Positions 61,855 through 62,531 of a stretch of DNA of 64,000 nt are shown here, in pieces. Origin of the DNA: Escherichia coli (GTDB lineage Bacteria > Pseudomonadota > Gammaproteobacteria > Enterobacterales > Enterobacteriaceae); the NCBI RefSeq assembly GCF_003334385.1, contig NZ_QOWN01000007.1, one strand, 5' to 3'. Position 1 is the first letter of the stretch. Each line of letters starts with the position of its first letter. The position numbers and the translations under genes are program-made. Below the pieces are notes generated by a model. It searched no databases, had not been told where the DNA came from, and saw only the letters and a list, made by a program, of their open reading frames with translations.

Positions 61855-61881
61855 GGGGAGTTAACTTACTCCCCATTTTTT
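61855..61881 (+). terminator. Rho-independent terminator after the dinI-like gene
   Basis: ggggagt-taactt-actcccc hairpin followed by tttttt. Confidence 0.55.
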
Positions 61882-62011
61882 ATTGCATGATAATTGCAGC
61901 AACGGCACAGAGTGTCACCACACCACCCAGCCACACAAACAGCATGAAGCACATTGCTCCCGCTGTATAACGTTTTCTCCCGTACATACGGCATTTGTCT
62001 TTATTCATCAT
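61880..62011 (-). CDS. Candidate small hydrophobic protein (43 aa), basic N-terminus plus a single predicted TM helix
   Basis: Part of ORF 61880..62074 (-); tandem ATG ATG at 62011/62008 with a weak SD-like aggggc upstream; product MMNKDKCRMYGRKRYTAGAMCFMLFVWLGGVVTLCAVAAIIMQ; no homology evidence, speculative. Confidence 0.2.
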   Translation of the reverse strand: MMNKDKCRMYGRKRYTAGAMCFMLFVWLGGVVTLCAVAAIIMQ

Positions 62012-62057
62012 CTGCCCCTGAATCACCTGAAGACGCTGCAGGTCCGGTAACACTGAA

Positions 62058-62531
62058 TCACTCCGCACACGCAAGATGTTTCACGCTCACACCATACAGC
62101 CCGTTTTTCGCCATTCCCGTATACAGAAAGGTATTCACCGTCTTCGTGTGAATGCCCATTTCACTGGCAAGGCGACAGGGTCTTGACTGACGGTAGACAT
62201 AACCAAACATCACCACCATCTCTGACATCGTCAGCGGACGGGCAACGCTGTTATACGTCCACACACCGTTGCGTATGGCATCACTTATCTGTTCACCATC
62301 ACGGAGTGATTCCGCACCCAGTTGCAGAAAATGTCGTCCCTGGAACATACAGCGCATCAGCCTGCCCAGCAGGCCATCACTGATTATCAGCCAGGATTCG
62401 TCAAAGTCCGGGATATAACGGCGGTTCTCCGGCAGGAAAAACTCCCTCGCCAGTATCACACTGTGTTCCTTCAGCAACTGTTGCAGTCCATATTCCAGGT
62501 AGCGGTTCCTTGTGGCCAGAATTACCTTCAT
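62058..62531 (-). CDS. Putative transcriptional regulator with a C-terminal LuxR/FixJ-like helix-turn-helix (157 aa)
   Basis: ORF 62058..62531 (-); C-terminal LTMSEMVVMFGYV...LASEMGIHTKTVNTFLYTGMAK resembles a GerE/LuxR-type HTH; N-terminus resembles a receiver fold lacking obvious phospho-acceptor context; family call is pattern-based. Confidence 0.45.
   Translation of the reverse strand: MKVILATRNRYLEYGLQQLLKEHSVILAREFFLPENRRYIPDFDESWLIISDGLLGRLMRCMFQGRHFLQLGAESLRDGEQISDAIRNGVWTYNSVARPLTMSEMVVMFGYVYRQSRPCRLASEMGIHTKTVNTFLYTGMAKNGLYGVSVKHLACAE

Follow-up and report, generated by a model that had tools for sequence, protein, structure and literature searches.

Judged from its pattern of substitution, the small open reading frame at 61880..62011 on the minus strand of the window (the whole 64,000-nucleotide stretch of Escherichia coli DNA that was analysed, from contig NZ_QOWN01000007.1) is a real protein-coding gene under selection, and not a chance ORF. 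The best explanation of its role, which we regard as somewhat probable, is that it encodes a 43-aa single-pass inner-membrane protein, that it forms the last gene of a prophage cargo cassette, and that its product acts through an invariant helix in the inner leaflet of the membrane. The cassette would comprise, in this order, a gene for an Eib/YadA-type adhesin, a terminator, a gene for a 157-aa NarL/FixJ-like pseudo-receiver regulator (ORF-157), and the gene for the small membrane protein. The small gene is already known, as it has been catalogued since 2000 as ORF-60 and is now listed as phrog_9340.

The greater part of the window consists of E. coli core chromosome, from gat via yeg, thi, rcn and yeh to btsSR, and over the tested stretch it is 100% identical to strain 2018-166. 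Prophage DNA makes up the final 2.7 kb. The mlrA (yehV) gene is truncated at approximately 61293 by the prophage end; about 22 leading codons of mlrA are left (61293-61358) before prophage DNA follows, which indicates that the prophage was inserted in this curli regulator gene, and the remnant is labelled by PGAP as a partial CDS in an identical genome. Just within the prophage end, upstream of the promoter of a dinI-like gene, there is a short tandem repeat GCCCCATTGAT of about 2.5 copies (61484-61513). The features of the region are as follows.

62622..63947, minus strand: YadA-anchor (Eib-like) trimeric autotransporter adhesin gene, 441 aa, first in the cassette (phrog_9547)
62560..62598, minus strand: strong intrinsic terminator after the adhesin gene, with an 11-bp stem, U8 and -27.4 kcal/mol
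62058..62531, minus strand: upstream partner gene of 157 aa (ORF-157), member of the ORF-156/157 family (phrog_6585)
62012..62057, minus strand: 46-nt spacer from the stop of the 157-aa ORF to the ATG of the small gene, open in frame here
62015..62019, minus strand: Shine-Dalgarno-like AGGGG, read from the sequence
61880..62011, minus strand: small gene, 43 codons plus stop, ATG start, product MMNKDKCRMYGRKRYTAGAMCFMLFVWLGGVVTLCAVAAIIMQ (phrog_9340, ORF-60 family)
61880-62053, minus strand: PGAP form of the small gene, GTG start, 57 aa (WP_021565261.1)
61880..62074, minus strand: maximal frame in the ORF listing, TTG start, 64 aa
61855..61881, plus strand: terminator of the dinI-like gene, a hairpin GGGGAGT-N6-ACTCCCC followed by a T-run
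61595..61843, plus strand: dinI-like gene, a convergent neighbour outside the conserved cassette

The coding status of the small frame was assessed in 46 locus records gathered from complete genomes, phage records, IMG/VR contigs and metagenome assemblies. The frame is intact with the same end position in 39 of these, which together hold 15 distinct alleles over the last 32 codons. Among these 15 alleles pS amounts to 0.61 and pN to 0.15, corresponding to a pN/pS of 0.25 (codon bootstrap 0.16-0.35), and the ratio drops to 0.07 in the invariant core GAMCFMLFVWLGGVV, where 10 synonymous variable columns are found versus one variable residue (G to A or T). The stop codon is at the same position in all 15 alleles. 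The two other sense frames and two of the antisense frames display pN/pS values near or above 1, while the third antisense frame, which mirrors the codon phase, contains stops. The high synonymous divergence (pS 0.61) argues against an overlapping constraint at the nucleotide level, such as that of a conserved RNA. Since dozens of ORFs of this size are present in the ORF listing of the window, size alone is not significant, and it is the conservation and the substitution pattern that lift the small ORF above chance. The sequence-only reading of this DNA had proposed a possible small membrane-peptide gene of a prophage, which is borne out by the 39 intact records, the 15 alleles and the pN/pS of 0.25, and it had named conservation of the frame in related prophages as a check; the frame is open in all 39 intact records.

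The same reading had left room for a chance ORF, and such an ORF, or a non-coding element (a terminator or a recombination junction) that is merely open, is now highly improbable. Its commonplace size, the mosaic make-up of the gene described below, and the persistence of its 3' half with the hairpin as a remnant at module junctions would be in line with that view, but it is contradicted by the low pN/pS, overall and in particular in the core, despite the high synonymous divergence, by the invariant position of the stop, and by the lack of such a substitution pattern in the other frames.

The start of the gene could be assigned from comparison of the clades. The AGGGG motif lies 3 nt ahead of the first ATG and 6 nt ahead of the second, and at this position relatives have AAGGTG, GGGAGA or a stop/start overlap. 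In deposited records the protein begins 14-17 codons further upstream and has 57-60 aa. The 14 codons upstream of the ATG are open in the clade of the window, with a pN/pS of 0.83 that resembles the other frames, and by this measure the extension evolves neutrally and lacks a coding signature. In the clades of locus records L002, L008-L012, L015 and L017, in-frame stops occur in the spacer just upstream of the ATG, which identifies this ATG as the family-wide start, with a product of 39-44 aa. For these two reasons the 57-aa PGAP, 60-aa GenBank and 64-aa TTG forms were rejected as the family-wide product. A 43-codon start had been proposed before, and the upstream stops and the neutral extension agree with it; the coordinates given for the 43-codon frame, 61880-62074, turned out to be those of the 64-codon TTG frame. 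Likewise, the proposed overlap with the 3' end of the regulator gene holds for the TTG frame (17 nt; the stop of ORF-157 is at 62058-62060) and not for the 43-codon ORF, which starts 46 nt later, so that the overlap is confined to the unconserved TTG extension.

Contrary to the earlier statement that homology evidence is lacking, the peptide belongs to a recognisable family. It matches phrog_9340 with an E-value of 2e-24, residues 1-43 aligning to profile positions 1-43 of 43, and it corresponds to RefSeq entry WP_021565261.1, a hypothetical protein in an identical genome that was called 14 residues longer from a GTG. By tblastn the peptide was detected in 13 phage records, including those of the isolated phages PhiR12, PhiR5 and GER2, and the identity with PhiR12, PhiR5 and WP_021565261.1 is 100% over 43 residues. 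The same family includes ORF-60A, ORF-60C and ORF-60D of the partial prophage records P-EibA, P-EibC and P-EibD (ECOR-9; AF151091, AF151674 and AF151675), in which the order of adhesin gene, stem-loop, ORF-156 and ORF-60 is the same and the tblastn identity is 71-74%; these entries and WP_021565261.1 differ from the present gene in their protein start, 14-17 codons earlier (57-60 aa), and no function is given in the records. In a collection of 5.8 billion proteins, 38 protein clusters match the peptide, all from E. coli or metagenomes, and a profile search in 1.84 billion representative proteins yielded only 9 clusters, all of the same family, and no remote relatives. No family was found for the peptide in NCBIfam at E up to 1, in Pfam at significant scores, or in PADLOC (0 families), and the small gene had no match in the plasmid collection. 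No mention of the peptide was found in the literature searched, which did not include the original paper of Sandt and Hill (2000), and the Eib papers that were examined do not mention genes downstream of eib.

The architecture that had been read from the sequence, a basic N-terminus followed by one hydrophobic helix, is confirmed. The first 16 residues contain 6 K/R versus 1 D/E and the other 27 residues are hydrophobic; the best 19-residue Kyte-Doolittle mean is 2.49, which ranks second among the 273 ATG-initiated ORFs of 30-80 aa in the window, and AlphaFold2 predicts a single helix over residues 5-42, with pLDDT values of 91-94 over residues 21-40. Conservation is unevenly distributed along this helix. 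The N-terminal 10-16 residues differ in sequence and in length, with a basic cluster (R/K-K/R-R/K-Y) that is nearly always kept, residues 18-32 are invariant or nearly so, and the final 11 residues vary freely among hydrophobics, with Q at the end. The N- and C-terminal variants are combined differently among the copies, indicating that the small gene itself is mosaic. According to the positive-inside rule, a basic terminus is retained in the cytoplasm. Hence, the N-terminus would be cytoplasmic, which would place the invariant part in the inner leaflet, and the C-terminus would end at the periplasmic face. The core helix is invariant around its whole circumference, as could be expected both of a peptide that forms pores or associates with itself and of one that binds another protein. 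A holin or lysis protein would be expected to be encoded in a lysis cassette next to an endolysin gene and to carry a charged cytoplasmic C-terminal tail; the small gene is instead found at the end of the prophage, past the tail-fibre genes, and its product has no such tail, as the chain terminates within the helix or where the helix ends.

The small gene is tightly linked to the genes upstream of it. In every intact locus for which upstream sequence is available it is located 0-60 nt downstream of an ORF-157 homologue (the distance between the ORF-157 match and the small-ORF match is 50-93 nt), and in locus record L011 the stop of the one and the start of the other overlap as ATGA. Upstream of the ORF-157 homologue lie a conserved strong terminator and, before it, a YadA-anchor gene. 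This terminator is annotated as a stem_loop in P-EibA and P-EibD; from its U-tract to the ATG start of ORF-157 there are approximately 27 nt, and both the terminator and the short gap are conserved in all relatives, with compensatory changes in the stem. In isolated phages, for example GER2 and PhiR12, the cassette is found within the late-gene strand, and in GER2-type phages tail genes lie on both sides of it. The query region of the small gene has matches at up to 5 places in the genome that encodes the 441-aa adhesin. Expression of Eib adhesins is strongly condition-dependent, differing between static and agitated growth (PMC4352079). A function of the peptide as an accessory factor in adhesin biogenesis was considered unlikely, because Eib proteins that were cloned alone were displayed and functional (PMC12511318).

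In 6 loci without ORF-157, cor occupies the position of that gene, and all that is left of the small gene is a 3' remnant with a frameshift. These six loci are probably related to each other, and the remnants may represent one or two events only. The remnants were observed in O104:H4-type and related prophages (locus record L013, 2536-2644; L041-L045, about 3001-3060), where the frameshifted remnant and the hairpin lie beside the exclusion gene cor, which points to a recombination junction within the small gene. In one chimera (locus record L014) the N-terminus is replaced behind a Gp38-like gene; since it was encountered in 1 of 5426 genomes, it was dismissed as an alternative conserved arrangement. 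Downstream of the small gene the neighbours vary from locus to locus and include a dinI-like gene, eaaA, an L0124-like gene, a 541-aa ORF plus tail tip fibre, and ykgJ, so that the dinI-like gene is not part of the unit. In the window, a LexA-box-like palindrome, CTGTACATAACCACAG (61564-61579), is located between a TTGACA promoter-like site (61529) and the start of the dinI-like gene, for which reason this gene is probably under SOS control, and its transcription proceeds towards the small gene. The T-run of its terminator includes the complement of the stop codon of the small gene, and when read on the minus strand this hairpin has no U-tract.

Homologues of ORF-157 that adjoin the small gene are 156-175 aa in length, and ORF-157 has no sequence match in Pfam, NCBIfam or the PDB. 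Its AlphaFold2 model (pLDDT 91.3) displays a shortened receiver-like domain and a LuxR-type helix-turn-helix, and by inspection its C-terminus also reads as such a motif. The best Foldseek matches in the PDB are RcsB, FixJ, EvgA and DesR, with modest scores (E-values of 4e-4 to 1e-3 and TM-scores of 0.3-0.46); RcsB, FixJ and EvgA were matched as full-length regulators of the NarL/FixJ family. As judged by inspection, the acidic pair after strand 1 is lacking (T7-R8-N9). The assignment of ORF-157 as a NarL/FixJ-like pseudo-receiver regulator is thus plausible on the basis of the model; the neighbour that had been called a regulator does have the corresponding fold in the model, and its regulatory role is plausible, short of proven. 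The phrog_6585 family is a putative orphan regulator family restricted to E. coli. Divergent relatives with 51-55% identity (P0071 and P0074) occur outside prophages (locus records L046, 3001-3495, and L050, 765-1259), near hpaBC or beside a gene for a PapB-family fimbrial regulator, and no small ORF was found downstream of the genes of this chromosomal clade, which implies that the regulator family does not need the peptide. These locations hint at a linkage of the ORF-157 family to adhesin loci in general. Two regulators of O157 prophages, PsrA and PsrB, were considered as possible relatives of ORF-157, but they are AraC-type and unrelated.

Several searches were directed at expression signals. 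No sigma-70-like promoter was found upstream of the small ORF on the minus strand, nor any promoter-like site in the 27 nt between the adhesin terminator and ORF-157. A consensus-based scan, which a weak promoter could escape, revealed no promoter-like sites on the plus strand at 61844-62100, and the comparison of 61000-63000 with Rfam at E up to 10 gave sub-threshold chance matches only, none at gathering score. The small gene is probably translated from the same mRNA as ORF-157. Their expression could depend on RNA polymerase passing the adhesin terminator in lysogens, on late transcription with antitermination once the prophage is induced, or on both; the late route is conceivable because tail-fibre genes lie upstream on the same strand as the cassette.

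In the best explanation, the peptide would be made from an mRNA shared with ORF-157, produced either by polymerase that has passed the adhesin terminator or by late phage transcription under antitermination, and would be inserted with its short basic N-terminus facing the cytoplasm and its C-terminus at the periplasmic face. With its variable basic N-terminus and an outer half of the helix that varies freely, the peptide would have a generic anchor, and the invariant inner-leaflet segment Y-T-x-GAMCFMLFVWLGG would be the functional surface. This segment would most likely pack against a second transmembrane helix, belonging to a conserved inner-membrane protein of the host or to the peptide itself. 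The existence of the gene, its start, the helix and the linkage to ORF-157 follow from the data presented above, while the topology, the co-transcription and the intramembrane mode of binding are what we infer from them. Several observations sit less comfortably with this explanation: a strong terminator stands directly ahead of ORF-157, so that the origin of transcription is not accounted for, the invariance of the core helix on all sides would equally suit a pore-forming or self-associating peptide, and the remnants in loci without ORF-157 may reflect only one or two events. Precedents for this mode of action exist among regulatory inner-membrane proteins of enterobacteria, of less than 70 aa and with a single helix that bind a larger membrane protein, such as MgrB, SafA, AcrZ and MgtS, and safA shares an operon with the regulator gene ydeO. 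The peptide resembles these proteins in size and in its single helix, whereas it has no homology to them and is essentially devoid of a periplasmic part, which would restrict it to intramembrane contacts.

A special case of this explanation, with a defined target, is that the peptide serves as a superinfection-exclusion or receptor-blocking factor, an inner-membrane peptide that blocks the entry of incoming phage DNA in the way of HK97 gp15. As a specific proposal this is rather unlikely, and phage exclusion in general is plausible by analogy, in view of HK97 gp15 and of the presence of cor in the same slot of related prophages. HK97 gp15 (YebO family) is a small inner-membrane exclusion protein encoded by a moron, a cargo gene among the tail genes of a lambdoid prophage (PMC3594210), and the small gene similarly occupies a cargo slot beside tail-fibre genes, in which related prophages hold the exclusion lipoprotein gene cor with the small-gene remnant adjoining; the invariance of the helix across diverged cassettes would suit a conserved host or phage target. 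Unlike HK97 gp15, to which no sequence similarity was detected and which has its own promoter and terminator, the small gene rides behind a regulator-like gene, and this tight linkage is left unexplained by exclusion; nor is the peptide related in sequence to any PADLOC, NCBIfam or Pfam family. The linkage is accounted for if the peptide is a dedicated membrane partner that tethers ORF-157, senses for it or antagonises it, the two forming a signalling pair that controls the adhesin or host genes. The strict adjacency, in places with translational coupling, the restriction of intact small genes to loci with ORF-157, and the confinement of both families to E. coli with similar cluster numbers all favour such a pair, and the modelled ORF-157 lacks the usual acidic pocket (as judged by inspection), so that an input other than phosphorylation would be needed. 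However, the cytoplasmic N-terminus, the only part able to reach a soluble regulator, is the least conserved, which speaks against a specific contact, the combinations of N- and C-terminal variants do not follow the ORF-157 clades, and the chromosomal ORF-157 relatives occur without the peptide, making a dedicated partnership an unlikely outcome. A broader proposal, to which we give only a small chance, is that the peptide and ORF-157 constitute a minimal membrane-linked switch of Eib prophages, or that the peptide alone blocks a conserved host inner-membrane protein and thereby excludes other phages. As part of a switch, the invariant helix would sense the state of the membrane or envelope, or capture a host membrane protein, and thereby set the activity of the regulator.

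The sequence-only reading had compared the architecture of the peptide with that of type I toxins and small phage membrane proteins. A type I toxin would be a membrane-depolarising peptide, its translation kept in check by an antisense or nearby small RNA, with a role in prophage maintenance or abortive infection. The peptide has the basic N-terminus and single hydrophobic helix of this class, and its length of 43 aa, below the limit of 60 aa, is like that of Hok, Ldr, TisB, Ibs, ShoB and ZorO; moreover, the invariance of all faces of the core helix is compatible with self-assembly, and the dinI-like gene with its LexA-box-like site could send antisense transcripts into the small gene if its terminator leaks. 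That terminator between dinI and the small ORF is strong, however, and the plus strand has no promoter-like site across or after the ORF. In further distinction from the toxins listed, the small gene has no promoter of its own and no long 5' UTR, and is instead positioned 0-60 nt behind the upstream gene with Shine-Dalgarno-like motifs or a stop/start overlap; no Rfam family at gathering score and no NCBIfam or Pfam family was matched, the variable downstream neighbours do not constitute a conserved antitoxin locus, and the freely varying synonymous sites (pS 0.5-0.6) give no sign of an overlapping RNA constraint. What stood of the toxin reading is thus size and hydrophobicity, as an antisense promoter, an Rfam match, an own transcription unit and a toxin family were not found. 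At the level of sequence the toxin reading is unsupported, and we consider it quite unlikely.

Because the small gene was already annotated, this analysis makes a modest addition, namely a corrected start (43 aa versus 57-60), strong protein-level selection on a hypothetical ORF that is 25 years old, and the definition of a three-gene cassette that spreads among the prophages of E. coli, also in LEE-negative strains that produce Shiga toxin. There is at present no sign of an unusual mechanism. Should the peptide modulate ORF-157 or a membrane protein of the host, it would be another small prophage protein that rewires its host, and the small gene might bear on the regulation of the Eib adhesins; the membrane-linked switch, if true, could be the missing local control behind their condition-dependent expression (PMC4352079).
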